Positions 1 through 20,595 of a DNA stretch of 64,000 nt are shown here, piece by piece. The position numbers were made by a program, and so were the translations under genes. The notes beneath the pieces are model-generated. The model did not search any database. It had not been told where the DNA came from and saw only the letters and a list, made by a program, of their open reading frames with translations. This DNA comes from Alphaproteobacteria bacterium (GTDB lineage: Bacteria; Pseudomonadota; Alphaproteobacteria; Bin95): assembly GCA_963422665.1 (NCBI GenBank), contig OY730441.1, positions 2,466,489-2,530,488 of the forward strand, read 5' to 3'. Each line of letters begins with the position of its first letter. Positions within the stretch are counted from its first letter, which is position 1.

Positions 1-134
1 GCAGGAAATGAACAAATCCGATCCAGGACCCCGGCGCCAGGACCACCGCGACCCACCACGGCAAATCGACCGTGGCATCCCCTCCATGTCGTCTTCTCCC
101 CGCCATGTCCAAGACCCTCCGCCCGCTCACGTCC

Positions 135-2081
135 TCAAGCAGCTTCAGCCAGCGACCTTTCCTTACGGACCACATAGGGATTCGGGTCCGCAAACTCCCT
201 CACCCCCTCGAGCTGCCAGTAGCGCGCATGCCTGAGGCGTATGACGTCACGGGGCATTTCCTTCGGCGACGCCACCACAAACTGATCGTCCGGACCCATG
301 GACAGGATTTCATCGGCAGGCACGAGCTGCTCCTTCACAAACGACAGCGATTCCTGGAGCGAACTCTGGCCGTCCGGGAGGAGGGCGCTGTCGCGCATTT
401 GCCCGGACCGGCTCTCACTGCGGTTCACGAAGGTGGCCGCGCCGATCGCTTTGGACAAAAGCTCAGCTCCCTCGACAGCAATTCGAGACCAGCCGAGGAT
501 CTGGACCACCTCGGCAAGCTCCATCAGCGTCTTGCGCGCATCCTGCCCCCAGGTATCGTCCAGCGCCGACACCGACTGCGCGAATGTCCAGAAGTGAACG
601 CCCTTGCCTGCAGCAAGGTTGTACCCGTCCATCACGGGCTGCAGGTGACCGAGCGCCGGCAGCTCGTCGATCACAACCAGCATGTCCCGCTGCATCGCGC
701 GCCGCGACGCCACCGCATAGGGAATCGAGACCCACAGGCGAAGCCAGCCCTTCACCAGGCTCGTCATCTCGTCCGGCACGACCACGAACACGTCGACGTC
801 GCCGTTCGCCAGGTCGAGCGGATCGAAACTCGACGAGCTCGTATGCGCGGCTATCTCCGGATAGTTCAGGAACGAGAGCTGGTTCGACACCGTCGTGAAG
901 TTCGAACCTCCTTCTTCCTTGCCGACCCGCCTGGACCGTTCCATCGCCATGTGCATCAGGCCCCCGCAGAAGCGGTCCGTGGCTTCGACCTCTGCGAAGA
1001 ATGCGTCACGTTCATCGTTGCCGAGCGATAGCATCTCGTAGAGCGTCTTCAGGTTTCTCCGGGCGGGCGGCATCTTGAACCTGACCCAGGCGAGATACCC
1101 GCTTATCAGCGACCGGGCGGACTCGTAGAAGTGCTTCGAGTTTCCGCCGTCGCTCTTCGGCCGCTCCATCAGCGCCTCGACCAGGACGCCGATGTCCCGC
1201 ACCGCCTCGTCCCCGTCCCGGATGAAATCCAGCGGGTTGTAGGTATCGCTCTGCGATACCGGCAGATGCAGCACCGCTCCCTCGCCGAAATCCGCCTCGC
1301 CGCCCTCCAGCTCCCTGTGCCTCGCGACCATGGCAAAGGGGTCCAGCAGGATCGGCCGGCGCCCGAGAGAACGCCGGCGCCGCGCCACGATCGGATAGAG
1401 CTCGCCCCGCGGGTCGATCACCACGGTCGAGCCCTGCCAGCCGCGCTCTTGCGGAGACAGGTAGTTCAACGCGATCGTCGCGCCCTTGCCGGTCCGGGGC
1501 GGCGCAAACGTCATCGCCGAGCCTTCCAGCGGATAGGAAATGAGCCCGTCCGGGCTCTGTCCAAGCAGCATTCCCTTTTTCCGGGCGAGCTCCCGGAGCC
1601 ACCGCCTCTCCAGGAACTTCGCCTTTCCGAAGAGTTCGGACTCCGCCTTCTTCCGTCCCCTTTCGCCGGCGACCCGCTTGGCCGTCGTCCTGGCGGTCAT
1701 GCTCAATATCATCACAGCCAAGAACACCCCCGCGGCCGGCAGCACATAGACGCAGACCGTCTCCCAGCTTTCCCCCAGCCTGTCCAAGGCCGCACCGCGA
1801 AGCCGGACGATGCCCGCCCACACCCAGGAATCGATCATCCAGGACCAAACGCCAGCCGCCGTGACGAACAGCATGCCGAGCCCCACGCCGAAGCTGCGCA
1901 CCTCACCGGCGCGCGAACTCCCGCACACACACCAGGCCGCCAGCCCGCCCAGGACCGCCGCAATCAGCAGCCGTGCGCTCGTTTCGGCATCCGGCCCGAT
2001 CGCCACCAGCCAGACAGCGGCGCCCAGACCGAGCAACGCGAATACCGCCGCCCCCCCGAAACCCTTCCATCTGTCGCCCAT
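135..2081 (-). CDS. traG: Type IV coupling protein (TraG/VirD4 family); real start at MGDRWKG, upstream part of ORF 135..3491 is GC artefact
   Basis: N-terminal TM helices; Walker A FAPPRTGKGATIALNYL; VVIDPRGELY motif; ~649 aa; last gene of the minus-strand cluster in the window. Confidence 0.85.
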   Translation of the reverse strand: MGDRWKGFGGAAVFALLGLGAAVWLVAIGPDAETSARLLIAAVLGGLAAWCVCGSSRAGEVRSFGVGLGMLFVTAAGVWSWMIDSWVWAGIVRLRGAALDRLGESWETVCVYVLPAAGVFLAVMILSMTARTTAKRVAGERGRKKAESELFGKAKFLERRWLRELARKKGMLLGQSPDGLISYPLEGSAMTFAPPRTGKGATIALNYLSPQERGWQGSTVVIDPRGELYPIVARRRRSLGRRPILLDPFAMVARHRELEGGEADFGEGAVLHLPVSQSDTYNPLDFIRDGDEAVRDIGVLVEALMERPKSDGGNSKHFYESARSLISGYLAWVRFKMPPARRNLKTLYEMLSLGNDERDAFFAEVEATDRFCGGLMHMAMERSRRVGKEEGGSNFTTVSNQLSFLNYPEIAAHTSSSSFDPLDLANGDVDVFVVVPDEMTSLVKGWLRLWVSIPYAVASRRAMQRDMLVVIDELPALGHLQPVMDGYNLAAGKGVHFWTFAQSVSALDDTWGQDARKTLMELAEVVQILGWSRIAVEGAELLSKAIGAATFVNRSESRSGQMRDSALLPDGQSSLQESLSFVKEQLVPADEILSMGPDDQFVVASPKEMPRDVIRLRHARYWQLEGVREFADPNPYVVRKERSLAEAA

Positions 2082-2098
2082 CGCACGCCTCCTTGCGT

Positions 2099-4288
2099 TC
2101 AATCCCCGCCGGCCCCGGCCCTGTTGCGCACCCCGGCGCCGAAGCGGCTCGGCGTGACTCCGCCGAGCCGTCCGGTGCTGCCCGTCGCCACCCCGATCAT
2201 CCGGTCCGCCTCGCTCATGCCGGAGGCGCGCCCGCCTATCCAGTTCATGACCGCATCGGGCAACATCTCGATCAGCTTCAGCGATGCATTCAGCAGCCCG
2301 TAGGCGATCATCACGTAGAGCGCCACGAACACCGCATACTGGATAATTCCAGGCCCGATCTCTCCTGCGCTCCCCTGCATCTGCGTGAGCCAGATCGCGT
2401 TGAAGAGCTCGATCGCGACGGTAAAGACCAGGTAGCCGACGATCAGCCCGAGGATCATCAGCGGCGGCCTCAAAACCACGCCCGCGAGGGTCACCAACCC
2501 GCCCGCCGTCGAGTTCGTGGTGAGCCCGTCGCCCTGGCCGCGCGCCGTCTGCGCCGCGAGCCACACGGTCATCGCAATGAACGCCTCCACCACCGCCAGG
2601 ATCCAGACCAGCAGCCCGAACAGGAACCGGATGAACGGCAGCGCCGGCGCCAGATAGGCGAGAACCGCACCGCCGATCAGCAGCGCCATCAGCAGCATCG
2701 TCACGATGCCGTCGATCACCGGCCAGGTCGCCTCGAAAAGGTCGGCCTTGAGCGAAAATCCCAAAGCCTGGGCATCGCCCAGATTGGACACCGCCGCAAC
2801 GCTCATCAGCGTGCCCGACGTCACCAGAACCGCCGTTATCAGGTTGTGCCCGATCGCCGCCAGCTCCGAGATCGGATTGTCCCCCTCCACATCGAGCACG
2901 TCCTCGAACGAGAACAGGACCGTATAGAAGACCTGGTTCAACAAGCTCCCCGCGCCCCCGCCAGCCGACCCCGTCTGCGGCGCCCGGCTGCCCAGCGGAC
3001 TTACCGGCGATCCCGCCGCCGTCGCTATGTCGTCCGCGATCTGGAGCAGCGCCTTGAAGGTCTTCCTGTCCCGGTCCTTCAGGGCGAGCATGGGCGGCGT
3101 TACCTCGGGCGCGCTCACCACCGCCCAATTGAACTCTCCGATCCGCGCCGCCACCCGGAAGAACAGGCTGCCCGCCGTCGTCCAGCTGCCGTTCGCCGCC
3201 TGCTCCGCAGTCAGCCGCTCCTGCGTCTCGATATTCTGCCGCTCTCCGGCCGCCGCCACGGCCGCATCCACCACCTGCGAATAGGCCGCCACCGCGCCTG
3301 CGATCGCACCGCTCACCGCCGACCAGTCCATCGGCTCGCCGAACCGCTGGCCGTCCTCGTAAGGCTCTGCAATCCGCTTCGCGACCGGGACCAGCACCTT
3401 GCGGGCCTCGTTCATGCCCTCGAGATGCGCCCTCGCCACCTCGCCCCGCGGCCCCTCCCGGTCCAGCCCCGCGAACCTCACCTCGCCGCAATGGCTCCTT
3501 ATGTCATAGCCGCTCGATCCCTGGGCCACGTCATAACGCCAGACCTGCCCGCCCCTTGCCGTCGTCCTCAACGGCCCCGCCGCCGCCCTCTTGCCCGCCA
3601 GCTCCCGGCAAACCTCCACGACCAGGAAGTCGACCATCATGACCTCCCGCCCCTCGGTCGACGGCTTCGGAACCGATACCCGCGAGCTTCCCAGCAGGGA
3701 GCCCGCAAAGGGCTTCCACACGGACTGCGCGAAATCCCCGCCGATCCCCGCCAGATCGAGCACGATGTGCTGCCCGCCCGAGGGACCGCCCGGAAGGGGA
3801 ACGAGCAGGGCCACGGACGTCACGATGCGCACGATTTCCCAGCCGCCGAAGCCGAGGCGGCCGGTCCGGCCGGTATCCATGACGCCGGCGGCCGTGTGGT
3901 AGATCAGCAGCGCGCCGGCGAGGACAAGCACGCCCGCGTTGAAATAGCCGACCATCTCGCCGAGCGCCGCATAGGCCGCGTTTCCGCCGCCGCGCAGCAG
4001 GTCGAACAGGTCCCGGCTCGCCTCGTCGACGATATCGAACAGGTCGGACTGGAACCCCTGGCCCCACGCAACCCCTGTGCCCAGCGCAATCCCCAGACCG
4101 ACGAGCGCCAGCCCCAGCGCGAGGCGCGCCGCCCCGATCCGCGAGCGGAACCGCCGCGCATCCGGCCGGCTCCCTTCCGGCAAATGCCACAACCCGGCAA
4201 CCGACCGGCCGATCCGGCCCGCCGAGGCTCTCGTCTCCCCGAGCGGCCGCCCGAACTCCGGATGGAAGAGCAGGCGCAAGACGCCCAT
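2099..4288 (-). CDS. Large polytopic inner-membrane protein, DotA/TraY-like (alternatively an extended VirB6/TrbL-like)
   Basis: 729 aa; one N-terminal TM, ~400 aa hydrophilic domain, then a cluster of 5-6 TM helices; start overlaps upstream stop (TGATG); sits immediately before the T4CP as traY does in R64. Confidence 0.5.
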   Translation of the reverse strand: MGVLRLLFHPEFGRPLGETRASAGRIGRSVAGLWHLPEGSRPDARRFRSRIGAARLALGLALVGLGIALGTGVAWGQGFQSDLFDIVDEASRDLFDLLRGGGNAAYAALGEMVGYFNAGVLVLAGALLIYHTAAGVMDTGRTGRLGFGGWEIVRIVTSVALLVPLPGGPSGGQHIVLDLAGIGGDFAQSVWKPFAGSLLGSSRVSVPKPSTEGREVMMVDFLVVEVCRELAGKRAAAGPLRTTARGGQVWRYDVAQGSSGYDIRSHCGEVRFAGLDREGPRGEVARAHLEGMNEARKVLVPVAKRIAEPYEDGQRFGEPMDWSAVSGAIAGAVAAYSQVVDAAVAAAGERQNIETQERLTAEQAANGSWTTAGSLFFRVAARIGEFNWAVVSAPEVTPPMLALKDRDRKTFKALLQIADDIATAAGSPVSPLGSRAPQTGSAGGGAGSLLNQVFYTVLFSFEDVLDVEGDNPISELAAIGHNLITAVLVTSGTLMSVAAVSNLGDAQALGFSLKADLFEATWPVIDGIVTMLLMALLIGGAVLAYLAPALPFIRFLFGLLVWILAVVEAFIAMTVWLAAQTARGQGDGLTTNSTAGGLVTLAGVVLRPPLMILGLIVGYLVFTVAIELFNAIWLTQMQGSAGEIGPGIIQYAVFVALYVMIAYGLLNASLKLIEMLPDAVMNWIGGRASGMSEADRMIGVATGSTGRLGGVTPSRFGAGVRNRAGAGGD

Positions 4289-5421
4289 CAGCGCTGGACC
4301 TCCAGCCAGTCCGCAAGACCGGGCAGCCGGCGCATCTCTTCCGCCGCCGCCCCAAGCCGCGCCGCCTCCATCGCGCCGCGCCTTTCGTCCATCCGGTAAC
4401 GCTCCCAGTCCAGCATCAGCGACGCGGCCTGGAGGAGCGCGAGCTCGCGCAGCAGGTTGTCCCGGTTCATCGACTGCAGGCCGACCGCCCAGGCCGGGTT
4501 CTCGAACCGCCGCGAGGTAAGGACCTCGAGCAGCTCGCGCCGGCTGAGCAAGCTCCCGTCGCCGGAAAGACCGGGCGCCAGTGTCGAGGCCCAGCCGGCC
4601 AGGTCCACCGCCGGCTCCCGCGCGCCGCGCGAGCGCGCAAACCAGTCCGAAGCGAGCGCCGCGCGCGCATCGGCTGCGCGCGCCAGCATGGCGAGCTCGC
4701 GGTCCTGGTCCGTGTCCACCGCCCGCAGCGGATACCGGTCCCAGACCAGCGGCGCCGCCAGGTTCCGCCCGAGCTCCTCGGCAGCAAGGCGTTCGTCGTC
4801 ATCCCCGAAGGTGTCCACGTCGAACAGGGACCCCGCCCTGATGTCGGCGTCGTGCCTGGACGGGTCTCCGCGACAGACATCCGCGCCGGCCTCGAGACGG
4901 TTCTCGCTGCAATGAGCTCCTGTCCAGACACCGAAACGCCGCCTGGTGTCCGCCGCCATGCCGGCCTCACCGCCGACCACGGCGCTGTCGCCGCCGATCC
5001 GCCCGGTCTCCCGGGTCCCGGCGCGCTTGCCGGTCTCCGCCGCCGCCGCGCGGCCTTCGGCAAGACCCGCCATGCCCGTGACCGTCCGGCAGCCCGAAGA
5101 GGTCGGCCGGTGCTGGAGCTTCGACTGTGTCTCGGCCTCGTCGCGCGCGATCTCCGCCTGCAACTTCATCTGCGCATCGAGCGCATCGGTCACCGACTTC
5201 GCGCCCTCGGCGATATATCCGGACAGCTGCGCCGTCTGGAGTTCCAGCGTCTCGACGATGCTGCTCTCCATCCGGTCGATCCGGGCATTGACCTTGGTAA
5301 TCACCGTTCGCGCCGCCGACCGCGACGCGCTCCAGGCGCAGCCGCAACAGTCCGCATGCGCTTCCGGCGCCGCCAGAGCCAGCAACGACACCGCAATCGC
5401 GCCCGCGGCGGTTCTCAACAT
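4288..5421 (-). CDS. Secreted coiled-coil T4SS protein (TraW/VirB5-position), signal peptide MLRTAAGAIAVSLLALAAPEAHA
   Basis: 378 aa from internal Met at 5421 that overlaps the upstream stop by 1 nt; cleavable signal peptide; heptad-like segment SIVETLELQTAQLSGYIAEG... Confidence 0.4.
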   Translation of the reverse strand: MLRTAAGAIAVSLLALAAPEAHADCCGCAWSASRSAARTVITKVNARIDRMESSIVETLELQTAQLSGYIAEGAKSVTDALDAQMKLQAEIARDEAETQSKLQHRPTSSGCRTVTGMAGLAEGRAAAAETGKRAGTRETGRIGGDSAVVGGEAGMAADTRRRFGVWTGAHCSENRLEAGADVCRGDPSRHDADIRAGSLFDVDTFGDDDERLAAEELGRNLAAPLVWDRYPLRAVDTDQDRELAMLARAADARAALASDWFARSRGAREPAVDLAGWASTLAPGLSGDGSLLSRRELLEVLTSRRFENPAWAVGLQSMNRDNLLRELALLQAASLMLDWERYRMDERRGAMEAARLGAAAEEMRRLPGLADWLEVQR

Positions 5422-6041
5422 CACGATTCTTCCTCCCCCACAATGCCGCGAAACACCCGGCCGGCATCCGGGTCCACTCCCGGAAGGCGCCGCGTCCTCG
5501 GTCGCACATCCAGCCCTGGCAGAACGTCCAGTTCGCGGTCCAGTCCATAGACCGCCCGGTCGAACGGGCGCGTCACCTTCTCGCGCCAGACCGCCTTTGC
5601 CCGGTCGCAAAGCTCCTGAAACAGGTCGGGCAGGCTCGGCAGCCGCACCAGCGCGTCCCAGCTCGGAAAGTTCAGCAGGTCGCAGGAGAGGTCGTAGATC
5701 GAGTCCGGGTCGCCGATCCCCTCGTCCGGGTGGCGGATGAAGACCTGGTCACGCTCCACACCCCGGACAGCCGAATCCTCAAGCGCCTTCGCGATCGCCG
5801 GATCGCAGTCGGCCTGACCGTCCGACTGACCGGCCGCCGGCGACGCCGCCAGCAGCAAAGCAAGTGCGCCCGCCGACGCCGTCAGCCTCCTCACGGTCCG
5901 TCCCCCGTGTAGAGGCGCGAATATGCGGGGTCCGCCTTCGCCTGCATCCGCGCCGCGCAGACCGAGCCCAGGTCTTCCTCGACCCACCGGCACGGCCCGT
6001 CGCGGATATCCACGCAGGCGTTCCGGTCCCGGCGCCCGCAT
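5421..6041 (-). CDS. Small secreted T4SS-associated protein (start uncertain: M at 6041 or GTG ~5894)
   Basis: hydrophobic signal-like segment LTASAGALALLLAASPAAGQ; stop overlaps next start; normal amino-acid composition after the signal. Confidence 0.35.
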   Translation of the reverse strand: MRAPGPERLRGYPRRAVPVGRGRPGLGLRGADAGEGGPRIFAPLHGGRTVRRLTASAGALALLLAASPAAGQSDGQADCDPAIAKALEDSAVRGVERDQVFIRHPDEGIGDPDSIYDLSCDLLNFPSWDALVRLPSLPDLFQELCDRAKAVWREKVTRPFDRAVYGLDRELDVLPGLDVRPRTRRLPGVDPDAGRVFRGIVGEEES

Positions 6042-6187
6042 TCACGGCAAATTGCATCGCCCGGCTCCGGCGGAGGAACCGGCGCCTGAAAGATCGTCTC
6101 CGCCAACGCCCTGCGCAGTTCGTGCTTTTCAGTCGGTCCCATGGCCTCTGCCCCTCGCTGCTCTCGCATCCGCACCGTTCGTCCCCC

Positions 6188-9175: not shown

Positions 9176-9188
9176 CGGACCCGTCCGC

Positions 9189-9554
9189 CTATTGCATCCT
9201 CGGCCGGGTCAACGTGCCGCCGACCCCCAGATCGAGCGTTCCGCCCAGCATCTCGACCGCCGACGGGAAGAAGATCATCGCAACGCCGACCATCGCGGTC
9301 ACCACCGCGCCCATGAAGCTCTGCTGCTGCGGATTGTCCTGCATGCGCTTGAACTTGTACAAGCCCATCAACACCAGGAACCCGCCCACCACGTAGAACA
9401 GGATCTGCACCACCAGCGGGAACTTCTCGAGCGCACCCGCGCTCTTCTTCGCCATGTCGCCCAGGTCCTTCGCCAGCACCGGCTCCGCCGCAACCGCAAG
9501 CAGCACCAGCAAGGCAAGCAGGCCCAGGCGATCCGTCACCGTCCTCGAAGCCAT
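9189..9554 (-). CDS. Small two-TM membrane protein, conjugative-pilin-like (VirB2/TrbC-like) or IcmD/DotP-like
   Basis: 121 aa; signal-like N-terminus LGLLALLVLLAVAAEPVLA then two hydrophobic helices separated by a KFKRMQDNP loop; directly upstream of the VirB4-family ATPase. Confidence 0.45.
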   Translation of the reverse strand: MASRTVTDRLGLLALLVLLAVAAEPVLAKDLGDMAKKSAGALEKFPLVVQILFYVVGGFLVLMGLYKFKRMQDNPQQQSFMGAVVTAMVGVAMIFFPSAVEMLGGTLDLGVGGTLTRPRMQ

Positions 9555-9582
9555 CTTCCGTCTCCTTTCGGGTTCGACATCT

Positions 9583-12238: not shown

Positions 12239-12879
12239 GTCCGCACCGCCCTGGTCACGAAAATCTGCTCGATGCCGATACCGGACGCCCGCTCGTCGAA
12301 CGGCACCCGCATCACGAGCACCTTCGTCACCATCTTCGTCGAGGACGTCTTCCGCCCGGCATGGAACGTGATCAGCATCGGGAACTCGAGCTGCCAGCCC
12401 GCGCGCCCGTCCCCGAATATCTGCGCATCCGTGATCACCGGCGCGCCCTGCGCCACCGCGCTCGCGACCTGGTAGTTGTCCCTGATCCGGTCGAGATACA
12501 GGCTCTCCTCGAGCCCCGCCACGAAGGAGTCGAAGCCCTCGTCCGTGAAATAGACCCGCACCGCCGAGAGCCGCGGCCGCCAGTCGTGATGCCCGAAGGT
12601 GAACGCCTCCGTGACCGCCGTCACCGCCCAGTTCTTCAGCGAGGCGTCCGTGCGCACCGGCTCTTCCAGCCCCTGCGCCTCGATGATCTTGCCGTCCGGC
12701 GTCGCCGCGATCGTCACATAGACCGTGTCGTGAAGGTCGATATAGCTCCAGAGCGCCACTGTCAGCAGTACGTTCATACCGAGCAGCACGAACGCGATCC
12801 GCCGCCAGCCGTGATGCGCCGAACGCTCGAAAGACAGGCTCCGCGCCGCCGCTGCGACCGCCTGGCGGAGATCGCTCAC
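12235..12879 (-). CDS. DotI/IcmL (R64 TraM)-like bitopic inner-membrane protein
   Basis: 214 aa (IcmL is ~212 aa), single TM IAFVLLGMNVLLTVALWSYI then periplasmic domain; GTG start in GTGA overlap; directly precedes DotH/DotG-like genes as in icmL-icmK-icmE. Confidence 0.5.
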   Translation of the reverse strand: MSDLRQAVAAAARSLSFERSAHHGWRRIAFVLLGMNVLLTVALWSYIDLHDTVYVTIAATPDGKIIEAQGLEEPVRTDASLKNWAVTAVTEAFTFGHHDWRPRLSAVRVYFTDEGFDSFVAGLEESLYLDRIRDNYQVASAVAQGAPVITDAQIFGDGRAGWQLEFPMLITFHAGRKTSSTKMVTKVLVMRVPFDERASGIGIEQIFVTRAVRT

Positions 12880-13244
12880 CGGACCCGCCAGGGCGCCGGA
12901 TCCATCGGGACCCGCGCCTCCGGAAACTCCGGGCCGAATACCCAGCCTGCGGTAAGGACGCAGAAACACATCGCGCAGACCGCGAACCCGACCGCGTTGC
13001 CGCGCCGCCATGCCCGCAAGGCCCGGACAGCCCGGAACGCCAGCGCCACCGCAAACGCCGCATTCAGGACCCAGCCAAAGGCTTCCTCCCCCGGCGTCCG
13101 CCGCCGCAGCAGATCCTGCGCCTTGCTCCCATACCTGTCGGCCAGTCCCCGCGCCGCGCCCCCAAAGCACAGAACCGCAAACACGGGCGCCGCTACCGAG
13201 GCCCCGGGACTCGCATCCGCCGCCCGTTTCAGCCGAACCCGCAT
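12876..13244 (-). CDS. Small integral membrane protein (IcmM/DotJ-position)
   Basis: 122 aa, 3 hydrophobic helices; 3-nt gap to upstream gene. Confidence 0.35.
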   Translation of the reverse strand: MRVRLKRAADASPGASVAAPVFAVLCFGGAARGLADRYGSKAQDLLRRRTPGEEAFGWVLNAAFAVALAFRAVRALRAWRRGNAVGFAVCAMCFCVLTAGWVFGPEFPEARVPMDPAPWRVR

Positions 13245-13247
13245 CGC

Positions 13248-13595
13248 TCAGTCCGCCGGCCATACGAGGAAGGCCAACAGCGCGAAGCCAGGTGCGCCTC
13301 CCAAAGCCCACGCCAGCACCCACAAAGTCCCGACCGCCGCCACGCTCACCGCAACACCGACGACCCCGACAGGACTTCCGGCCTCCAGACGGCATTTCAG
13401 CCTCGCCAGCAGCAGCAAGGACAACCCCGGCGCCAACACAACACATATCAACCCGGGAACCCGAAACAGCAACGGCCCCGAACGCAGCAGCAGGTCCTGC
13501 GTCATGCCCGTACAGGTCGCCGCCGGGGAGGGCGAAGCGACGCCCAACCGGGCAACCGCGGCCAAGGCCGCAACGCTCCCGGCAACCGCTCTCAT
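13248..13595 (-). CDS. Small integral membrane protein
   Basis: 115 aa from internal Met overlapping upstream stop (ATGA); 3 TM helices. Confidence 0.35.
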   Translation of the reverse strand: MRAVAGSVAALAAVARLGVASPSPAATCTGMTQDLLLRSGPLLFRVPGLICVVLAPGLSLLLLARLKCRLEAGSPVGVVGVAVSVAAVGTLWVLAWALGGAPGFALLAFLVWPAD

Positions 13596-14563
13596 TCCGC
13601 CGGCCCGTCGCCAAACCACTCCCTGAAGTCCGCTCCGACCGCCGAGGCGATCCGCCCTTCCGGCTCGCGCATCAGCGCAAAGGGCACAAACTCCGACCCC
13701 GTGCGCTCGAACAGTTTCCGGTTCAGCGCCACACCTGCCGCCGCATCCGCACTCACAACCGGCCATTCGTCCTCGCGATCGAGCGTGAACCAGGTCCGCG
13801 CCCGGTCCTCCGCACCCAGCACCAGCGCGGCCATGACCTCGGCCTCCGCGCCGCGCGCGCCTACAGGCACCACGCGCAACACGATCCCGCCGTCGAGCGC
13901 ACGGCGCGCAAGCTCCGCAACCGCCGCCCGGGAAGGAAGACAGGTCGGATCGGCGAAGATCGCGACCTGCGGACCGGACTCGCCGAGGTCGAACCCCTCC
14001 ACCGCAAACGCCGCCTCGAATATCCCTGGCGGCAACCGGTTCGCTGCCCCGGACCTGCGCCCTTGCGGCAGTCCTTCCGGTACCGCCGCAACCCTGGACT
14101 TCTCCGCCAGCAGCCCCCGATACGATGACCCGACACCGCCCGCCTGCGCCCGTGGCGCAATCCGCGAAGCCCGGGCTCGCGGCTCCACCTTCGATACGGA
14201 AGTCCCGGACCGCTTCCCGATATCGCCGGGCGGTCGCCCGGCCGCCTCCCTGACGGACGCCACCTGGCTGTCCGTCAGCTCCCGGCCGTCAGGCCCGAAC
14301 AGCAGCCCCATCACCCCGTGGCCGCTCTCGTCCACATAAAGCGTGTAAGGAGACTTGCCGCGAGGCGTGACCAGCCACCCCTCGAGCGCTCCCCTGCGAC
14401 CGAGCGGCATCACCTCCGCTCCGTTCGTGCGAAGACCGGCCACAAGCGCGCCGCCCGCCTCCTGGCCCGATGCCGTCTTCATATCCACCGACCACCCGAT
14501 CGTCACGGCGCCCACCAATGCTGAAACCGCCCAGGCGCACGTCTTCTTCGCGCGCAACTCCAT
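13592..14563 (-). CDS. Periplasmic thioredoxin-fold protein, DsbC/TrbB-like (CxxS variant)
   Basis: signal peptide MELRAKKTCAWAVSALVGAVTIGW; C-terminal IFADPTCLPSRAAVAELAR resembles the thiol-disulfide isomerase motif with a single Cys; first gene after a ~800 bp non-coding-looking gap. Confidence 0.45.
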   Translation of the reverse strand: MELRAKKTCAWAVSALVGAVTIGWSVDMKTASGQEAGGALVAGLRTNGAEVMPLGRRGALEGWLVTPRGKSPYTLYVDESGHGVMGLLFGPDGRELTDSQVASVREAAGRPPGDIGKRSGTSVSKVEPRARASRIAPRAQAGGVGSSYRGLLAEKSRVAAVPEGLPQGRRSGAANRLPPGIFEAAFAVEGFDLGESGPQVAIFADPTCLPSRAAVAELARRALDGGIVLRVVPVGARGAEAEVMAALVLGAEDRARTWFTLDREDEWPVVSADAAAGVALNRKLFERTGSEFVPFALMREPEGRIASAVGADFREWFGDGPAE

Positions 14564-15355
14564 CAACCGCCTCCCCCGAGACAGGCTTGGCGCCGCTCGC
14601 GCCGTTCCTGCCTCCACTCCGTCCAGTCCCGTCCGAACGGAATTGTCTGGCCGAAACGCGCCCCGATTCTCGATTGCGCCGAGCCCGCCCACAGGCCATC
14701 TGTCAGGCCCGAAACGATCCCGAGCCAAACGGCCGCCGCGGCCAACAGCGGAAGCCATGGCTTGTCCCATCCCGATACCGACTCATATGTCGCCGCCAGA
14801 CTCTTGGCGGGCGCTGCGCCAACCCGGTTACCCATAGCTCCATCGCAGCCCAAACCCTCAACACCGCGCTTGGGGACACGACCGAAAGCTACATGTGAGA
14901 GATTTTCGATTGCCAAAAATGCGCAATTTTCGGCTGCCATTGACATCGGCAGCAGCCCAACGAGGAGCAACAATCCCGGCCGGGCATCGTCCCACGCAAC
15001 AAACCGCGCAACGAACCCTTCCGCGCGGCGAGCCTCGCCGCGCTGCACCCGACCCCCAACCCTCCAGCCAAGCCAGAACGCCCCACCGCAGGCTCCGACG
15101 ACCCGGAGTCCGGGGAAACCCGGCAATGACGTGGCCAACGCCACCGGCAACGCCACCAGACTCCTCTTGAACGAGTGCTGCAGGTGACCGCGCTCGAACG
15201 CGCCGATCGCCACAAGCCGGTCCGCATTCATGCCCATGCCACAACTCCTGGAAACAGCACCGTCCCGGCCACGACCGCCAGGCCCATCAGCCGCGAGTCC
15301 GCGAGCCTCCGAACCGCCCTCACCGTCCTTTCCTTCATCTGCTCCGCTTCCCGCA
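14564..15355. promoter_or_regulatory. Probable non-coding break between two operons of the cluster, with repeated GATTYTCGATTGC-like motifs
   Basis: lower GC; GATTCTCGATTGCGCC at ~14665-14680, GATTTTCGATTGCC at ~14901-14914, ATTTTCGGCTGCC at ~14925-14938, TTTTTCCGATCGAC at ~15463; the only long ORF here (14563..15603) has a W/R-rich implausible N-terminus. Confidence 0.3.
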
Positions 15356-15599
15356 CTACGGTGCCGCGTCCACCCGGAAATCCCCACGGTCCGGTCCGAC
15401 TCCCCTTTCCTCCCGGCCCGGAACCTCTCCCGCCTCCGAAACCCCCGGCGCCTCTTCCACGTTTTTCCGATCGACAGGCGCCAGATCCCGGGGGACAGCC
15501 AATGACGGCGGCGCCAGCATCGACCCCCGCCGCTCTTCCACCCTGTCCGAATATTGCTCCCGGAGCGGCTCTTCCCCGGACGGCAAAACGAACTCTCCG

Positions 15600-16175
15600 T
15601 CATCGCTCCCCGACTCCCGTCGCCCTCACATGCTTCATCGCCATGGAGGCGCCGTCCTCCGACAGCCTCCCCGCCGGCGCGTCCGGAACCCCGCCCAGCG
15701 CGGCGAACAGCAGCGCCGAGGCCTCTTCGAATGTCCGACCCCGGAAAACCCTTCCGTCATGAACCCGGTAATGGCGGTCCGTCCGCCAGACGACCTCGAC
15801 GCCCGCGCGCGCCCCCCAGCGCGACATGACCGAACGCAGCGTCTCTTCCGCCCACACCCGCCAGTCCGAAGCGCCGGCGCGCGCCGCCGCGAACTCGACC
15901 TCGCTCTCGCGGATGCCGGCCGGCCGGACATGCAGCTCGTCCCCGAAGCGCCGCCATGCCAGGCCCGCATCGAACAGCAGCGAGCGCCAGTCGCCGTAGA
16001 CCCGATCAACGGGCCTGCCGGCCTCCACCCGCCGGTCCCAGCGGAGCTTGACCCCGGCCGGTCCGAGCCTCGCCGCCGTCTCCGCAAGCGACGTCGCATC
16101 CGGCGCATGCAGCAGCATGCCCTCCCGCAGCCCCGGCTCGAAATCGAAACCGGCATCGGCCGGCAGCCAACCCAT
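15600..16175 (-). CDS. Hypothetical protein in T4SS cluster (start uncertain; possible lipobox LSALC if it starts upstream within the IcmT-like gene)
   Basis: 191 aa from Met at 16175, 5 nt after the upstream stop; ordinary composition. Confidence 0.3.
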   Translation of the reverse strand: MGWLPADAGFDFEPGLREGMLLHAPDATSLAETAARLGPAGVKLRWDRRVEAGRPVDRVYGDWRSLLFDAGLAWRRFGDELHVRPAGIRESEVEFAAARAGASDWRVWAEETLRSVMSRWGARAGVEVVWRTDRHYRVHDGRVFRGRTFEEASALLFAALGGVPDAPAGRLSEDGASMAMKHVRATGVGER

Positions 16176-16180
16176 CGCGC

Positions 16181-16453
16181 CTAGAGCCAGTGCAAGTCCG
16201 CAAAGCGCCGATAGCGGTCGAGGAAAAGCGCCCGCCGGCCCCGGCAGCTCGCCGCGCGCACCCGCCTTATCGCCGCCCGCAGCCGGTAGCCCCGCTTCTC
16301 CGCAATCCGGAACGCCACGAACGCCAGCAGCAAGAGGACCGTCGTCGCAATGTTGGGCCAGAACAGCCAGGCGAACATCATCAGCGCCAGGCGCGCGTCG
16401 AACCCCCAGATCCTTACCGCGCGCGCACTGTCGCGCCACACAAGACCGTCCAT
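16181..16453 (-). CDS. IcmT/TraK-like small membrane protein
   Basis: 90 aa, single TM FAWLFWPNIATTVLLLLAFVAF, basic C-terminus; immediately downstream of the DotB-like ATPase as traK follows traJ in R64. Confidence 0.45.
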   Translation of the reverse strand: MDGLVWRDSARAVRIWGFDARLALMMFAWLFWPNIATTVLLLLAFVAFRIAEKRGYRLRAAIRRVRAASCRGRRALFLDRYRRFADLHWL

Positions 16454-16468
16454 TCCTGCCTCCCGCCA

Positions 16469-17596
16469 TCACGACGCCTCGCTCCCCGCCATGCCGTGCG
16501 AGGCGCGAATGCGCGCGAGGTCCCGCGCCCCGATCCGCCCTTCGGCAAACACCGCCTCCGCCTGCACCGCCAGTCCGTGGCCCGTCTCCCCCAAGGCTTC
16601 CGCGATCCGCTGCGGCCAGAACCGCCTCTGCATATCCAGCAGCTCCGCCTTCAGGGCCGCATCGAAGACGAGCCATTCCCGCACCGCCGTCCGCCCGCCC
16701 CCGGGGTTCGGCAGCAGCGCCTGCGTCACCACCAGGTTCAGCATGTCGATCAGCGCCGCGCCGCGCTCGCCGCGCTCGTCCTCCGGAAACTCGCTCAGCA
16801 TCCGGCGGATCGTGTTCGCCACCCCGATCGTGTGCGTCGTGCTGTAGACCGCGATCCCGAAGTCCGCCGCGTTGATCGCGGCCTCCACCGTCTCCCTGTC
16901 CCGCGCCTCGCCCACGATCACCGCCGCCGGGCGCCGACGAAGGCTCGCCCGCAGCCCATCGGCGAAATCCACGAAATGGCGCGGGATCTCCGAGCTCGAC
17001 ATCAGGCTCGCGCCGCCCGTCTCCACACCGTCGAAGACGAACTCGATCGGGGCCTCGTAGCTCTGGATGCGGCCCGCCCCCATCTCCAGAAGCCGCCTGG
17101 TTCCCGCAGCCAGCAGCGTGCTCTTGCCGCTGCCGGGAACGCCCGTGACGAGGTTCAGCCCCGTGCAGGCCTCCAGCGCCCGAACGATCTCATCCTCAAT
17201 GCTCAACTCTTCCAACGTCGGCGGATCGCCGGGCAGGAGCCGCATGGTGATGTTGATCCCGAAGCCGTGCCGCACCTGCACCGGCGAGAGATTGCAGCGG
17301 AACCGGATATCCCGCCCGCGCTCCAGCCCCACCGCATGCCCGCAGTCCACCGCACGGCCCGACCGCAACACGCCGTCCGCGGTCTCCCGCCCGATCTCGC
17401 GCGCGATCCGCTCGACGGTCGTGTTGTCCAGCAAGGCCCGCGTCGCCTGCCTCACCCGGCCATCCACCTCGATCAGCGCCGGCGCCTGCGTCTGGAACGA
17501 CACGTCAGACGCCCGCTCCTCCCAGGCCCACCGGAGGAAATCGTCCAGTTGCTCGACCGGAAACACGTAATCGCCGGGCGCCCAGAGACCGGTCAT
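16469..17596 (-). CDS. DotB/TraJ-like secretion ATPase (PilT/VirB11 family)
   Basis: Walker A GVPGSGKSTLLAAG; Walker B-like VIVGEARD; ~375 aa from MTGLWAPGD; ATGA overlap with upstream gene. Confidence 0.8.
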   Translation of the reverse strand: MTGLWAPGDYVFPVEQLDDFLRWAWEERASDVSFQTQAPALIEVDGRVRQATRALLDNTTVERIAREIGRETADGVLRSGRAVDCGHAVGLERGRDIRFRCNLSPVQVRHGFGINITMRLLPGDPPTLEELSIEDEIVRALEACTGLNLVTGVPGSGKSTLLAAGTRRLLEMGAGRIQSYEAPIEFVFDGVETGGASLMSSSEIPRHFVDFADGLRASLRRRPAAVIVGEARDRETVEAAINAADFGIAVYSTTHTIGVANTIRRMLSEFPEDERGERGAALIDMLNLVVTQALLPNPGGGRTAVREWLVFDAALKAELLDMQRRFWPQRIAEALGETGHGLAVQAEAVFAEGRIGARDLARIRASHGMAGSEAS

Positions 17597-18198
17597 CGCA
17601 CCCGCCTCCTCTGCGGCGGCCGCGCAAGGAGAAGCCGGAACGCCTTTGCCAACGAACATTCGCGTCGGCGCGAAACCGCCGCCAGCGCCCGGTAATCCGC
17701 GGATGCCGCTACAATCGCTCCGATCGCAAGAACCCCACCGACCGGCACGCAGTCTTCCGCCGATCCGAAGAAGCCCCCGCCAAATCCAAAAACAACGAGA
17801 GTCGACCGACAGTCTATAAACCCCGTATCCTCGTCGTCATATCCACCCAACTTCCAGCCCGGAAACCACAGTACGCCAATCCCAAACGCACAGGCACTCG
17901 TGAAAAAACCCAACCGCGACCACAAGCCTCCGCCTTTCAATCCGCACAAAACCAGGGCGACCGGCATCAACAAGGTCAAATAAACCGAACCCTCGTAGTC
18001 CTGCCCATGCTTATCGCGGACCCTTCCTTCCTCTACCGACTCCGTAACGGCCCTGGCGTCGTCATTGCCATCTGCACAGCGCCTTTGCTTCCTTGTTCCT
18101 GCATGCCTGTCCGCACCGCTCAGCTTCGCTGGCTCAGAAGCAAGCGCTTCCGGATATTCATGGTGCTCGTACCCGGCCTCGTGCTCATGGCTCCTCAT
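17593..18198 (-). CDS. Hypothetical membrane protein with His/acidic N-terminus (spans a low-GC patch)
   Basis: MRSHEHEAGYEHHEYPE... then Gly-rich hydrophobic segments; start uncertain. Confidence 0.25.
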   Translation of the reverse strand: MRSHEHEAGYEHHEYPEALASEPAKLSGADRHAGTRKQRRCADGNDDARAVTESVEEGRVRDKHGQDYEGSVYLTLLMPVALVLCGLKGGGLWSRLGFFTSACAFGIGVLWFPGWKLGGYDDEDTGFIDCRSTLVVFGFGGGFFGSAEDCVPVGGVLAIGAIVAASADYRALAAVSRRRECSLAKAFRLLLARPPQRRRVR

Positions 18199-18299
18199 CG
18201 GCTCGACGTCGGCCTGCCCGTCCTTGGCCGGTTCTGAACCTTCGTCGTAGCGCCCGCGGCCCGCCCCCACCGGCATGCCCCTGTCCCTTTCCGCGCCAC

Positions 18300-19163
18300 T
18301 CACGGCCCCGCCTCCGCCCAAACCGGAAGCGCGGCCCCCGCCGCCCCGTCGTCGTTGCGAAAGACGAACCCACGCCACTGGCGCGAACGAAGCTGAAGCT
18401 CCGCAGGACGCCCGAGCCTCACCAGCGTCTCGCCGACCCGCATCACCCGGCCGTCACCGGCCGTCGCCGAACGGCTGACCTCAACCTTCGGAGCGCCCAC
18501 CATGCGGGCGCCGTGGAGCGTGTTCCAACGCGCGATCCCCTCCAGAAGCGCATTCAGACGATCCAGGTCCGCCGCAAAAATCGCGTCCGCCTGCTTCACC
18601 CCCTCCTGCCAGCCGCGCGCGATCCACCGCGCCCAATCCGACTTCTCCGCGTCGTCGCGGGGGAACAGCACCGATACCGGCGGCTCCGGAACCCGCCAGC
18701 GGCGGAGCAGGAAGTCCCGCCAGTGAGGCGGCGCCGTCGCCAGACGCTCGGATTCCATGATCCGCACCACGCGCGCCGCCGAGGCCGCGCGCCGGCCGTC
18801 GCGCCCCAGCCGCACCGCCTGGCGTGTCTCGCCCACCACCGGCGGCACCAGCACGAACCCGTGCCGGCTCTCCATCAACCGCCTGAACCCGTAGAGCCGG
18901 TCGAGGCTCGCCTCGTGCTTCCCCACGACATCCCGCGCGATCTCCCAGGATCGCCACGCGAGACCTCCCTGCGCCCCATAGGCCAGAGCCGTAGCGCGCA
19001 TCGCCTCCCGGCGCTTCTCCTCGCCGAACTCCACACCCAGGTCGCTGCCCGGCCTTGCCTCCAGCAGTGCCGAAAGGTCCGGCGGCGCTGAGTCCTCCGC
19101 CGCTGCCCACAACGGGACCAGAAGCACGGCCAGGGCCGGAAGGAGGAAGCGCGCGAGCCGCAT
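18300..19163 (-). CDS. Secreted periplasmic protein (DotC-position, no lipobox)
   Basis: 287 aa from MRLARFLLPALAVLLVPLWAAA (signal peptide); Met overlaps upstream stop by 1 nt. Confidence 0.4.
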   Translation of the reverse strand: MRLARFLLPALAVLLVPLWAAAEDSAPPDLSALLEARPGSDLGVEFGEEKRREAMRATALAYGAQGGLAWRSWEIARDVVGKHEASLDRLYGFRRLMESRHGFVLVPPVVGETRQAVRLGRDGRRAASAARVVRIMESERLATAPPHWRDFLLRRWRVPEPPVSVLFPRDDAEKSDWARWIARGWQEGVKQADAIFAADLDRLNALLEGIARWNTLHGARMVGAPKVEVSRSATAGDGRVMRVGETLVRLGRPAELQLRSRQWRGFVFRNDDGAAGAALPVWAEAGP

Positions 19164-19687
19164 CAACCGCCGGTTCCCTGCGCGCGCGGTTCCGCCTCGA
19201 ACCAGTCGAGGCGCACAGTCATGCGGCCGGCGTCCACCGTCAGAAGCGCGCGGTCCGCCGCCTGCATGCCGGCATCCCTGAAGATGTGGATGAGCGGCGC
19301 GTCCTTCGCCTCGATCTCGACCAGCACGGGCGCCGGCGGCGGACGGCCCGCCGTCACCAGCGCATAGCCTGCGCCCGCCGCCAGCTGCCGCGCCAGCTCC
19401 TCCAGCGGCCCGATGTAATCCATCGACACGCGCAGCAAGAGTTCGGGCGGGGTATTCCTCGGTATGTCGGGAGCACTGAGGTCCGCTCCCGCCGAGCGCG
19501 ACTCCGCGAGCTTCGACAGCGCCCGCTCCGCGCGCAACGCCGCTTCCGCAAGACGCGCTTCTGCAGGATCCACGATCGAGCCGTTGCCTTCCTTCGGCGC
19601 CGGGTCCCGGCCGAAATCCAGCGTCTGGCAGCCGCCAAGCGCCAGCGCGCCCACCATGAACGCTCCCGCGGCTGCGCCGATGCTCAT
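19163..19687 (-). CDS. Lipoprotein, DotD/TraH-like by size and position
   Basis: MSIGAAAGAFMVGALALGGC lipobox; ~175 aa; followed by a ~290-aa secreted protein and the DotB-like ATPase (dotD-dotC-dotB order). Confidence 0.45.
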   Translation of the reverse strand: MSIGAAAGAFMVGALALGGCQTLDFGRDPAPKEGNGSIVDPAEARLAEAALRAERALSKLAESRSAGADLSAPDIPRNTPPELLLRVSMDYIGPLEELARQLAAGAGYALVTAGRPPPAPVLVEIEAKDAPLIHIFRDAGMQAADRALLTVDAGRMTVRLDWFEAEPRAQGTGG

Positions 19688-20595
19688 TGCCCTGCGCTCC
19701 CGAGGTCGCGCACCACCAGCCACTTGTTGGGATAAGCCGTTGCCGTGAGCGTCCTGCGCATCGGCGAAACTGCCAGCAGGGCGTCGGCTGCCGCCAGGAA
19801 CCCGGCCTCCTCTGTCTCCCCGGCAGGAAACGCCGCCGCCGCCCCCACCTTGAACCGGCGCTCGCTCTCCCAGGCCAGCTGCCAGCCGGCACGCGCGGCC
19901 CAGGCGCGCAACACGCCCTCGACCGTGCCGTGCGCTTCCGGATCTACTTGCCATGCTGCCGATCCCGCCTGTTCCGCTTCCACCGCCGCAGCAGCATCGG
20001 GATCCACCGGCCTTCCTCCCGGCTCCAACTCCCCCGGAACGCCATCCTCCACACGCCCCTGCGCAGCCTCTCCTTCAGCATCGCCGTCCTCCTCGTCCGT
20101 AAGGGCGGCAAGAACGCCCACCTCGACCCCGCCCGGCATCCGCTCGGGGCGCCGCTGCTCGATATCGCCGTAGCGGTAGAAGACGAGCTGGTCGTCTTCC
20201 CAGCCCCGGTCGTAGCCCGAGAGCCTGGCGAGCTCGTCCAGGACCTCGGGAACCGTCCCGCGCATCGAAAGACCGAACGGCACCGCCGGCTCCAGAACGA
20301 CATCGCCGTCCACGACGCGGCCCGGGCGGTCCTGAAGCACTGCCTTCACCCCGGCCAGGTCCGCAACCAGGCCCGCCAGCTCCCGGAACGGCAGGGGGGC
20401 CAGCTGCTTCACCTCGATCTCGCGCGCCGCAATCTCCGCAGGCAGGTCCTTCGACGGCGCCACGACCGTCACCGTCGCCGCGATCGGCGCCGCCGCCCAG
20501 GGTTTCCGCTGGGCGTCCTGCGCTACTGCCAGCGAAACACTCGCCAGCAGCACGGCAAGCAGCAGGACAAGCAACAGCGCCATTTCCCTCGACAT
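19684..20595 (-). CDS. Secreted protein with C-terminal PilL/TcpQ-like segment (uncertain)
   Basis: signal peptide MSREMALLLVLLLAVLLASVSLAVAQ; acidic middle; C-terminal ...TLTATAYPNKWLVVRDL. Confidence 0.35.
   Translation of the reverse strand: MSREMALLLVLLLAVLLASVSLAVAQDAQRKPWAAAPIAATVTVVAPSKDLPAEIAAREIEVKQLAPLPFRELAGLVADLAGVKAVLQDRPGRVVDGDVVLEPAVPFGLSMRGTVPEVLDELARLSGYDRGWEDDQLVFYRYGDIEQRRPERMPGGVEVGVLAALTDEEDGDAEGEAAQGRVEDGVPGELEPGGRPVDPDAAAAVEAEQAGSAAWQVDPEAHGTVEGVLRAWAARAGWQLAWESERRFKVGAAAAFPAGETEEAGFLAAADALLAVSPMRRTLTATAYPNKWLVVRDLGSAGQ

Follow-up and report, generated by a model that had tools for sequence, protein, structure and literature searches.

The window analysed here, a 64,000-nt stretch of the alphaproteobacterial contig OY730441.1 (positions 2,466,489 to 2,530,488), carries a locus that is very probably an IncI/R64-type transfer system, i.e., a type IVB, Dot/Icm-like system of mating-pair formation class I (MPF_I), within an integrated conjugative element in the chromosome of an uncultured alphaproteobacterium. 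It forms one tightly packed minus-strand gene string that runs from position 39,833 down to 135 with many 4-bp stop/start overlaps, and from about 39,900 rightward ordinary metabolic genes are found on both strands. The window covers the right-hand part of the element (about 39.9 kb), the left end of which lies outside. All 30-odd element genes in the window keep their open frames and show host-like codon usage. Judged by its sequence, the MPF part is a clear yet distant member of MPF_I, and every part stems from a known family, i.e., this is no new kind of machine. What is new here is an MPF_I system with a VirD4-type coupling protein on an integrated element, with a relaxase of class MOB_F in relatives, and a populous, uncharacterised metagenomic lineage. 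This combination is uncommon, yet it is built wholly from known parts.

A first-pass annotation had described a Dot/Icm-like system at 135-20595. Its gene strings are real: we find them on the minus strand with near-identical coordinates (the type IVB string spans 135-20640), backed by profile matches far beyond chance. With regard to extent, the annotated stretch is indeed part of the system, but the element is about twice as long, its transcription unit running on unbroken to about 39,920 and including a pilus cluster.

The window has a GC content of about 70%, and raw lists of its open reading frames (ORFs) are thus full of spurious frames. Genes were therefore called with a codon-usage model trained on the clearest genes, together with a codon-position GC plot. 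Called genes of at least 70 amino acids (aa) were scanned with Pfam and NCBIfam models, which stand in for the CONJScan profiles and have limited sensitivity to very divergent homologues. In addition, every window gene was compared by BLASTP with the tra, trb, pil and nik proteins of R64 (NC_005014). Plasmids were taken from PLSDB (72,556 plasmids), and a protein database provided 255 TraU homologues at E <= 1e-20, of which the best 120 cluster representatives are listed. We inspected the surroundings of TraU in six relatives known from metagenome assemblies (L002, L003, L004, L010, L011 and L012) and read the pilN context in three (L013, L014 and L015). A further Logan contig of 18.9 kb (L007) matches the window without any difference along 12,081 nt and reaches 215 nt further left. 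The usual pairings of relaxase (MOB) and MPF classes follow the Guglielmini and Cury papers and general knowledge.

Eleven type IVB or MPF_I components are recognised, namely DotD, DotC, DotB, IcmT, DotI, DotH, DotG, a TraQ-like protein, TraU/DotO, a TraW-like protein and DotA, all encoded on the minus strand. In the direction of transcription, the first group comprises the 174-aa lipoprotein DotD/TraH (19163-19687; PF16816 5e-27, NF033882 8e-21, lipobox LGGC), the 288-aa DotC/TraI (18300-19166; PF16932 1.4e-56, R64 TraI 4e-29), the 375-aa PilT-like ATPase DotB/TraJ (16469-17596; TIGR02524 254 bits, TIGR02525 TraJ 231 bits, Walker A present) and the 90-aa IcmT/TraK (16181-16453; NF038220 47.7 bits at a cutoff of 40). 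The ATPase shares 34% identity with R64 TraJ (2.7e-46). DotD, DotC, DotB and IcmT form one contiguous series that corresponds to traH-I-J-K, as in IncI; in Legionella, icmT is located in a different region from dotDCB.

The second group starts with the 214-aa DotI/IcmL/TraM (12235-12879; PF11393 8.6e-36, NF038072 1.1e-33), followed by the 312-aa DotH/IcmK/TraN (11300-12238; PF12293 3.3e-36, R64 TraN 1.8e-18) and the 391-aa, VirB10-like DotG/IcmE/TraO (10128-11303; NF033900 6.5e-16, NF033884 TraO 1.6e-11, R64 TraO 3e-5, weak TrbI). Next come a TraQ-like membrane protein of 182 aa (9583-10131; NF033883 conj_TraQ_IncI1 3.3e-9 over the full length though below cutoff, DUF6750 1e-5) and, in the TraR/TraQ position, a small DUF6750-like membrane protein (9189-9554; PF20535 0.0015), called as a 121-aa gene on L007. 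The 995-aa VirB4-family ATPase TraU/DotO (IcmB) follows at 6188-9175. Downstream of it lie a TraW-like secreted protein of 378 aa (4288-5424) with weak matches (NF033888 conj_TraW 5.8e-5, R64 TraW 3e-6), whose orthologues in relatives are matched by the TraW-like family PF28212, and the 729-aa DotA/TraY (2099-4288; TIGR04346 234 bits at a cutoff of 100, R64 TraY 2.7e-13).

The 995-aa ATPase aligns with R64 TraU at 28% identity over 931 aa (6e-91) and has the Walker A motif GIPGRGKS. It is matched by no curated profile, and a sequence search of PDB gave no match. The annotation of homologues points in the same direction as the alignment: a Roseomonas mucosa plasmid homologue with 37% identity is annotated as IcmB in one record, a Gluconobacter homologue (34%) as IcmB/DotO, and a member of the TraU cluster carries the NCBI name IcmB. 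The assignment to the TraU/DotO class is thus one by alignment and annotation.

According to Guglielmini 2011 (PMC3158045), MPF_I is recognised by at least four of TraI, K, L, M, N, P, Q, R, W and Y. At this locus TraI, TraK, TraM, TraN and TraY score above curated cutoffs, while TraQ, TraW and TraR are matched weakly by the proxy models. Beside these, the DotB/TraJ ATPase is present, the DotD/TraH lipoprotein adjoins DotC/TraI, and a VirB4-family ATPase of the TraU/DotO type is found by alignment with R64 TraU. Signature matches of MPF_T or MPF_G are absent from the Pfam and NCBIfam scans: VirB2, 3, 5, 6, 8 and 9 are unmatched, and so are the ICEHin1056 proteins p31, p35, p41, p44, p51 and p52 (MPF_G). 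The sole VirB-type signals are a weak TrbI/VirB10 match, which is common to DotG, and a TrbE score of 14.6 bits versus a cutoff of 1020.

We also compared the locus with R64/ColIb-P9 (IncI1), the archetype of MPF_I, with which it shares the design of a Dot/Icm-like secretion system plus a type IVb thin pilus. IncI plasmids are known for combining the two (PMC12857230). BLASTP matches are collinear with R64 for pilN, pilQ, pilR, pilS, pilV (two window genes), traI, traJ, traM, traN, traO, traR/Q, traU, traW and traY. That is, both follow the order pilN..Q-R-S-V, traH-I-J-K and traM-N-O-(P/Q/R)-U-(V)-W-Y, with one-to-one BLAST matches for 15 genes, although identities amount to 24-34% only and the window locus has a GC content of 70%. 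The first-pass annotation had seen the gene order of both Legionella and R64 mirrored here; R64 indeed provides the closer fit, judged against the general Legionella layout, as no Legionella locus was compared.

The thin-pilus cluster spans 24,796-39,833, is R64-like by profiles and BLASTP, and lies on the minus strand like the rest. Its first gene, and that of the whole element, encodes the 583-aa secretin lipoprotein PilN (38082-39833; R64 PilN 28% over 407 aa, 6.8e-23), which shows a weak Secretin match and the lipobox LLGGC. It is followed at 35261-38085 by a 434-aa protein in the PilO position and a 507-aa secreted protein, and L014 and L015 have conserved versions of both; the PilO assignment follows from position and size (R64 PilO2 has 431 aa), and the 434-aa protein has no significant sequence match. 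Further downstream are a 195-aa protein that holds the PilP position (30406-30993; assigned by position only, 69-81% kept in L014 and L015), the 561-aa assembly ATPase PilQ (28724-30409; T2SSE 2.7e-42, R64 PilQ 1e-30), the 352-aa platform protein PilR (27669-28727; R64 PilR 1.4e-15 over 296 aa) and a PilS-type pilin of 179 aa (27117-27656; PF08805 6.8e-8, R64 PilS 1.6e-5). Two PilV-like minor pilins of 337 and 414 aa (24796-27113; weak Shufflon_N, R64 PilV 8e-7 and 1.6e-4) are paralogues of each other. Thus, the pilN, O, Q, R, S and V set of the IncI1 thin pilus is present, with PilO and PilP placed by position only.

Some parts of R64 have no counterpart in the window. The shufflon and its Rci recombinase were not found: none of the 35 genes (70 aa or more) called within 135-39,833 was matched by Phage_integrase in the Pfam scans, and the search for shufflon-like repeats at pilV returned only weak inverted repeats at chance level. 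Likewise, homologues of R64 sog, excA, traE-G and pilL/M/T/U are undetected by BLASTP among the window genes. The NikB-NikA-oriT region of IncI1 is not seen, i.e., there is no relaxase within the window, the element's left end being outside it. Finally, R64 is plasmid-borne while the window element is chromosomally integrated.

The clearest departure from R64 concerns the type IV coupling protein (T4CP). The window T4CP (135-2081, minus strand, 648 aa; PF02534 4e-40, TraG-D_C 1e-17) is of the VirD4/TraG type, while that of R64 is TrbC/DotL. The first-pass annotation had called it a TraG/VirD4 protein rather than DotL/TrbC, and this is borne out by a controlled test with the TrbC_conju model NF041447. 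Here, R64 TrbC scores 1043 bits and the T4CP of the Roseomonas mucosa type IVB system (L001) 274 bits, while the window protein gives no match at E <= 0.05. It matches TraG/VirD4 NCBIfam models instead (best PRK13822, 111 bits), shows no BLAST similarity to R64 TrbC or the Roseomonas T4CP, and in PDB matches Cag5/VirD4 and TrwB. The motifs APPRTGKG and VVIDELP, which we take to be the TraG/VirD4 form of Walker A and B, are kept in relatives. Among plasmid proteins, the nearest homologues reach about 29% identity and come from alphaproteobacterial plasmids. Two of these were examined, one from Sphingomonas and pSF45436e of Sinorhizobium fredii; both have MPF_T as their type, and pSF45436e encodes a Ti-type TraA relaxase as well.

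The T4CPs that go with MPF_I have been described as nearly monophyletic (PMC3548315), and the TrbC/DotL protein of their clade is not the one found at this locus. The substrate-recruitment module is not that of IncI: a VirD4/TraG T4CP stands directly after traY, and in relatives it is accompanied by an Mrr-like gene and TrwC. This also manifests in the relaxase, which is NikB (MOB_P) in R64 versus TrwC (MOB_F) in the relatives of the window locus.

These relatives show that the arrangement recurs. Five of the six inspected share a conserved order that starts with a TcpQ protein, DotD, TraI, TraJ, IcmT and a second TcpQ protein and continues via DotI, DotH, TraO, ..., TraU, ..., TraW and TraY to the VirD4-type T4CP; the sixth (L004) starts just upstream of DotI and matches this order thereafter. 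Thus, TraY is followed by the VirD4-type T4CP in 6/6 relatives, with TraU identities to the window protein ranging from 58% to 97%. In L003 and L011, the T4CP is followed by an Mrr_cat protein and then by a 996-aa TrwC relaxase (MOB_F; PF08751 7.8e-69). The suggestion that the system might be a hybrid gains support from this MOB_F relaxase beside the T4CP, and finding MPF_I, VirD4 and MOB_F together in both loci marks the combination as a property of the lineage rather than an accident of one locus.

The lineage itself is large. At least 120 TraU cluster representatives share 56% identity or more with the window protein (the best 120 being listed). Metagenomes are the source of nearly all of those listed, with many of the assembled contigs reaching Mb size; the few named ones among the listed matches are proteins of metagenome-assembled genomes (MAGs) of Alphaproteobacteria or Rhodospirillales. 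A scan of genome collections yielded three loci, all in MAGs that bear the title 'Alphaproteobacteria bacterium'; the records measure 2.2-5.6 Mb. With regard to plasmids, the best PLSDB match to the window TraU has 37% identity, and megablast of 135-20595 against PLSDB found nothing, so there is no close plasmid relative in that database. Given that only the best 120 of the TraU homologues are listed, the values of at least 56% for the lineage and at most 37% for known plasmids are not to be read as a clean identity gap. On balance, we somewhat favour the view that these loci belong to a large undescribed family of chromosomal MPF_I elements of uncultured Alphaproteobacteria (Rhodospirillales-like MAGs among them), in which TrbC/DotL and MOB_P are swapped for VirD4/TraG and TrwC/MOB_F and which sit at many sites, sometimes within genes, in several copies per genome that recombine.

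Some further observations on homologues may be noted. Among the TraU homologues of about 1210-1260 aa (P0015-P0018, P0022 and P0050), some are fused to a single-stranded DNA-binding (SSB) domain (PF00436), and L012 has a separate SSB gene directly 3' of TraU (13127-13615). Another contig (L017; 1,450,831 bp) encodes a 1270-aa TrwC relaxase that is 79% identical to that of L003, with no T4CP upstream; it adjoins an insertion sequence (IS), and the genes that come after it encode an Eco57I-like enzyme and a large helicase. The same contig also has PilN and PilQ homologues, i.e., element parts may be scattered. Two plasmid loci, Rhizobium leguminosarum pRlX5 (L008) and the Methylorubrum extorquens AM1 megaplasmid (L009), were considered as related type IVB systems and discarded, as they share only the ATPase within a different gene set. 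Their ATPases are the best PLSDB matches to TraU (37%), with no other type IVB gene within 20 kb. In L009 (13455-33240), the ATPase lies on the same strand as genes for an A24 prepilin peptidase, a RecD2-like helicase, an RNase T-like exonuclease, a UvrD helicase, RecJ and a 1438-aa Prim-Pol protein, and L008 shows a string of similar gene sizes.

Integration into a chromosome is indicated by the contig and by the element's right end. The exact TraU, T4CP and PilQ sequences are found on the source contig of 4,588,027 bp. In L013, L014 and L015, the conserved block starts with pilN and is preceded by unrelated chromosomal genes, i.e., leuS, lptE, genes for monooxygenases and, adjoining the element, a short CoA-transferase gene (220 aa) in L013, a TRAP transporter and a kinase in L014, and nicX and a dehydratase in L015. 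Given this 4.59-Mb contig and the differing chromosomal genes next to pilN, we consider the element integrated and ICE-like (ICE: integrative and conjugative element). When aligned, the similarity between the window and these three relatives ends at about 39,920, some 90 nt upstream of pilN. The conserved end upstream of pilN (39857-39925, minus strand), aligned with all three, contains the motif GATTCG-N11-TTGTCAACA; this sequence could be a promoter/operator or part of a recombination site. It is found at about 10013 in L013 and at about 9918-9968 in L015, where a degenerate second copy lies about 200 nt further out.

On the chromosomal side, the end is adjoined by the C-terminal quarter of an amidohydrolase gene (39898-40536, plus strand; Amidohydro_3 positions 359-469 of 472, open frame of at most 290 codons), and the element may insert inside genes. 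One contig holds three PilN copies (P0162, P0174 and P0219), and a further locus (L018) has two tyrosine recombinase genes beyond the relaxase. The tRNA scan of the window found none, and an integration site at a tRNA gene is therefore not invoked. As for an ICE, the element is thus chromosomal, with a sharp boundary and insertion sites that differ between genomes; boundary, flanks, copies, IS hits and recombinases fit an ICE-like element with loose target choice.

Copies of the element also appear to exchange parts. Between L014 and the window, PilR is 100% and PilQ 99% identical, while PilO (84%), PilN (81%) and a 424-aa lipoprotein (55%) differ considerably more. The contrast of 99-100% for PilQ/PilR with 55-84% for their neighbours argues for recent exchange between elements, and this mosaic suggests, at the level of sequence, recent recombination between element copies of different genomes.

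Further systems help to place the locus. Given as closest to the window TraU in PLSDB is the ATPase (36-37% identity) of Roseomonas mucosa AD1 plasmid unnamed4 (NZ_CP025192), from the same host class. Like the window, this plasmid encodes DotA, DotI, DotH, DotG, DotO, DotD, DotC, DotB and IcmT, but in a different order, i.e., DotI-H-G...DotO precede DotD-C-B-IcmT, with DotA on the other strand. Its T4CP is TrbC/DotL-like (274 bits), and the 43-kb stretch shows no thin-pilus cluster. The premise of the first-pass annotation that such systems are hardly known from Alphaproteobacteria was too strong, since DotO homologues occur on many of the alphaproteobacterial plasmids in PLSDB. Hosts of plasmids with Dot/Icm-like genes include Roseomonas, Gluconobacter, Bosea and Beijerinckia, and the occurrence in this class is therefore not novel in itself.

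Legionella pneumophila and Coxiella Dot/Icm share the homologous core (DotA, B, C, D, G, H, I, O and IcmT) and are chromosomal, too. Their DotL-DotM-DotN-IcmS/W complex and DotF are undetected in the window: the profile scans of called genes gave no matches for DotL, DotM, DotN, IcmS, IcmW or DotF. Unlike Legionella Dot/Icm, the window locus comes with a thin pilus, a relaxase in relatives, a mobile-element context and an IcmT contiguous with dotDCB. Islands of the PAPI-1/ICEclc type are integrated and combine an R64-like type IV pilus with a VirD4-type T4CP (PMC12857230, PMC3548315), but their machinery is MPF_G, in contrast to the full MPF_I gene set of the window.

Several observations weigh against an active conjugative element. 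The window itself holds neither a relaxase nor an oriT, integrase or att site, and tblastn of the L003 relaxase against the window found no relaxase. The T4CP is followed by an Mrr-like gene, of which the window holds the 5' part (1-106, minus strand) before it continues past the left edge. With the extension given by L007, the encoded product aligns with residues 4-57 of the L003 Mrr_cat protein (57% identity). Its frame ends after 70 codons there, with the assembly break 108 nt beyond, so the DNA-processing end of the window copy may be disrupted. Both a lytic transglycosylase and a prepilin peptidase went unrecognised in the profile scans and the R64 BLASTP of the window genes. IS elements inactivate several relatives, i.e., TraU in L004, the T4CP in L002 and PilO in L013. 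Here, the same three-gene insertion, encoding an HTH_23 protein, a 491-aa rve-type transposase and a 277-aa AAA_22 ATPase, is found in TraU of L004 (5662-10001) and PilO of L013 (12302-16265), and a Mutator-family IS interrupts the T4CP of L002 (17501-18950). Many element copies are thus decaying, and transfer has been observed for no member. What we infer about active conjugation derives from gene content, intact frames and intact motifs, the latter including the ATPase motifs of TraU, DotB/TraJ and the T4CP. At the window locus T4CP and MPF genes are present, and a relaxase is seen in the relatives L003 and L011; the window copy's own relaxase and integrase are presumed.

The alternative these points bear on most directly is a decaying, non-transferable remnant, in which the MPF genes are intact by chance and the DNA-processing end is lost. 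The truncated Mrr-like gene and the assembly break just left of the window would fit, as would the IS insertions in relatives, a cargo cassette inside the pil operon, and the lack of a relaxase within 3.9 kb of the T4CP in the closest relative L004 (87-98% protein identity over shared genes). On the other hand, 30-odd genes with open frames and host-like codon usage, intact ATPase motifs and the recent exchange that PilQ/PilR record speak against a remnant, which we hold to be unlikely, though worth keeping in mind. A related question is whether the locus belongs to the backbone of a conjugative plasmid, i.e., a megaplasmid or chromid, rather than to an integrated element. Alphaproteobacteria have Mb-size secondary replicons, one relative sits on a 2.2-Mb record titled 'chromosome: 3', and the window shows neither an integrase nor a tRNA gene. 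Yet the source contig measures 4.59 Mb, another relative lies on a 5.6-Mb record titled 'chromosome: 1', the L013 element adjoins leuS and lptE, flanks differ between genomes and homology ends sharply; we thus consider a megaplasmid improbable.

Far less credible is that the system serves a symbiont or pathogen for effector translocation into a eukaryotic host, as in Legionella and Coxiella, instead of conjugation. Such a role would agree with the homology of the core machinery to Dot/Icm, the chromosomal location and the lack of a relaxase in the window, and known chromosomal MPF_I systems are essentially the dot/icm loci of these two genera (PMC3158045). It is at odds with the missing DotL, DotM, DotN, IcmS, IcmW and DotF matches, the VirD4-type T4CP beside a TrwC relaxase in relatives and the IncI-like thin mating pilus; furthermore, differing chromosomal sites, several copies per contig and frequent IS hits are a pattern typical of a selfish mobile element. 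That a VirB/Trb (MPF_T) or ICEHin1056-type (MPF_G) system was misread as type IVB deserves practically no credence. It could appeal to a T4CP of the kind found on MPF_T plasmids and to the weak TrbI/VirB10 match, but the profile searches refute it, with VirB2, 3, 5, 6, 8 and 9 missing, TrbE far below its cutoff, and strong, specific matches for DotD, DotC, DotH, DotI, IcmT, DotB and DotA. The first-pass annotation had named MPF_T or MPF_G assignments without DotB, DotI or IcmT hits as what would speak against a type IVB system, and the picture obtained is the reverse.

For an integrated conjugative element of the IncI/R64 type, the parts would work together as follows. The outer-membrane core would consist of DotC/TraI, DotD/TraH, DotH/TraN and DotG/TraO, and the inner-membrane parts of DotI/TraM, IcmT/TraK, the TraQ-like proteins and DotA/TraY, with TraU/DotO and DotB/TraJ as ATPases. 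By analogy with R64, the thin pilus may bring cells together in liquid. A relaxase would then nick a putative oriT, and the VirD4-type ATPase would dock the complex of relaxase and single-stranded DNA onto the Dot/Icm-like channel, through which the DNA would pass to a recipient captured by the thin pilus.

So far, surveys of complete genomes have described MPF_I systems as plasmid-borne and low in number, with the dot/icm loci of Legionella and Coxiella making up essentially all of the even rarer chromosomal ones (PMC3158045), and MPF_I ICEs as 'extremely rare' and absent from a set of delimited ICEs (PMC5587801). The locus and its metagenomic relatives depart from this picture of plasmid-borne systems, rare ICEs and monophyletic T4CPs (PMC3158045, PMC5587801, PMC3548315). 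At least 120 TraU representatives at 56% identity or more, many on Mb-size contigs, indicate a sizeable environmental reservoir of integrated IncI-like elements. Tools that infer the MOB or T4CP type from the MPF type would misjudge such elements. Beside this, the locus raises a question of modularity in type IV secretion, namely how a coupling protein docks on a type IVB channel without the DotL-DotM-DotN complex. If the reading as a family is true, it would fill the reported near-absence of MPF_I ICEs and would show T4CPs of the VirD4 type to be able to dock on a channel of the Dot/Icm type.

The remaining genes of the string, again all on the minus strand, are less well characterised. A cargo cassette of a methyltransferase dependent on S-adenosylmethionine (SAM) and a polyprenyl synthetase (33291-35226; Methyltransf_11 3e-21, polyprenyl_synt 1.7e-65) sits in the pil operon between the conserved genes for the 507-aa protein and the 424-aa lipoprotein, and the GC content dips to 0.66 there. 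The lipoprotein (31979-33253) has a lipobox and is 48-55% identical in L014 and L015. At the cassette's position, L014 has an acetyltransferase and a radical-SAM gene (14903-16314) and L015 nothing (14462-14493). The spot is either a cargo hot spot or a place of variable enzymes that modify the pilus or lipoproteins. Between the pil and tra blocks lie seven genes (20627-24802, from gene calls) for membrane proteins and one lipoprotein, none of them with Pfam or NCBIfam matches.

Two proteins with TcpQ, a domain of type IVb pilus secretin partners, flank the dotD-dotC-dotB-icmT block, and both are conserved in the lineage. One is a PilL-like secreted protein of 318 aa with a C-terminal TcpQ domain (19684-20640; PF10671 1.4e-8), located upstream of DotD also in L010-L012, and the other is a 191-aa protein (15600-16175; PF10671 3.6e-8) that directly follows IcmT in L010, L011 and L012. 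R64 has no counterpart at either position, the sole hint being a weak match of one of the two to the PilL C-terminus (E = 0.029).

Within the tra block, a variable gene of lower GC content (17593-18321; GC 0.62) between traI and traJ is fast-evolving: its L002 counterpart is 32-35% identical, and L003 has none. A divergent conserved gene is located at 14563-15237, where tblastn with a 211-aa protein of L002 gives 31% identity at 14614-15198. The neighbouring protein at 13592-14692 has a DsbG/DsbC-like C-terminal domain (NF008657 DsbG 5.7e-9, residues 243-354) and is possibly an analogue of R64 TrbB. Two small proteins of 122 and 85 aa (12876-13244 and 13248-13505) occupy the TraL position, which is kept in relatives at 46-70% identity, and have no family match in the profile scans. 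The same scans gave no family match for a 157-aa secreted protein in the TraV/TraX position (5421-5894), which has a signal-peptide-like N-terminus and is kept at 81-90% in relatives, or for a small 83-aa ORF downstream of TraU (5891-6142), which is called as a gene on L007 and has equivalents in L003 and L004. Beyond the element, the chromosomal flank contains a gene of the DMSP-lyase family (40559-41164; PF16867, 1.9e-35), which may hint at a marine host, and a DDE_Tnp_1_assoc transposase gene at 59059-60285.

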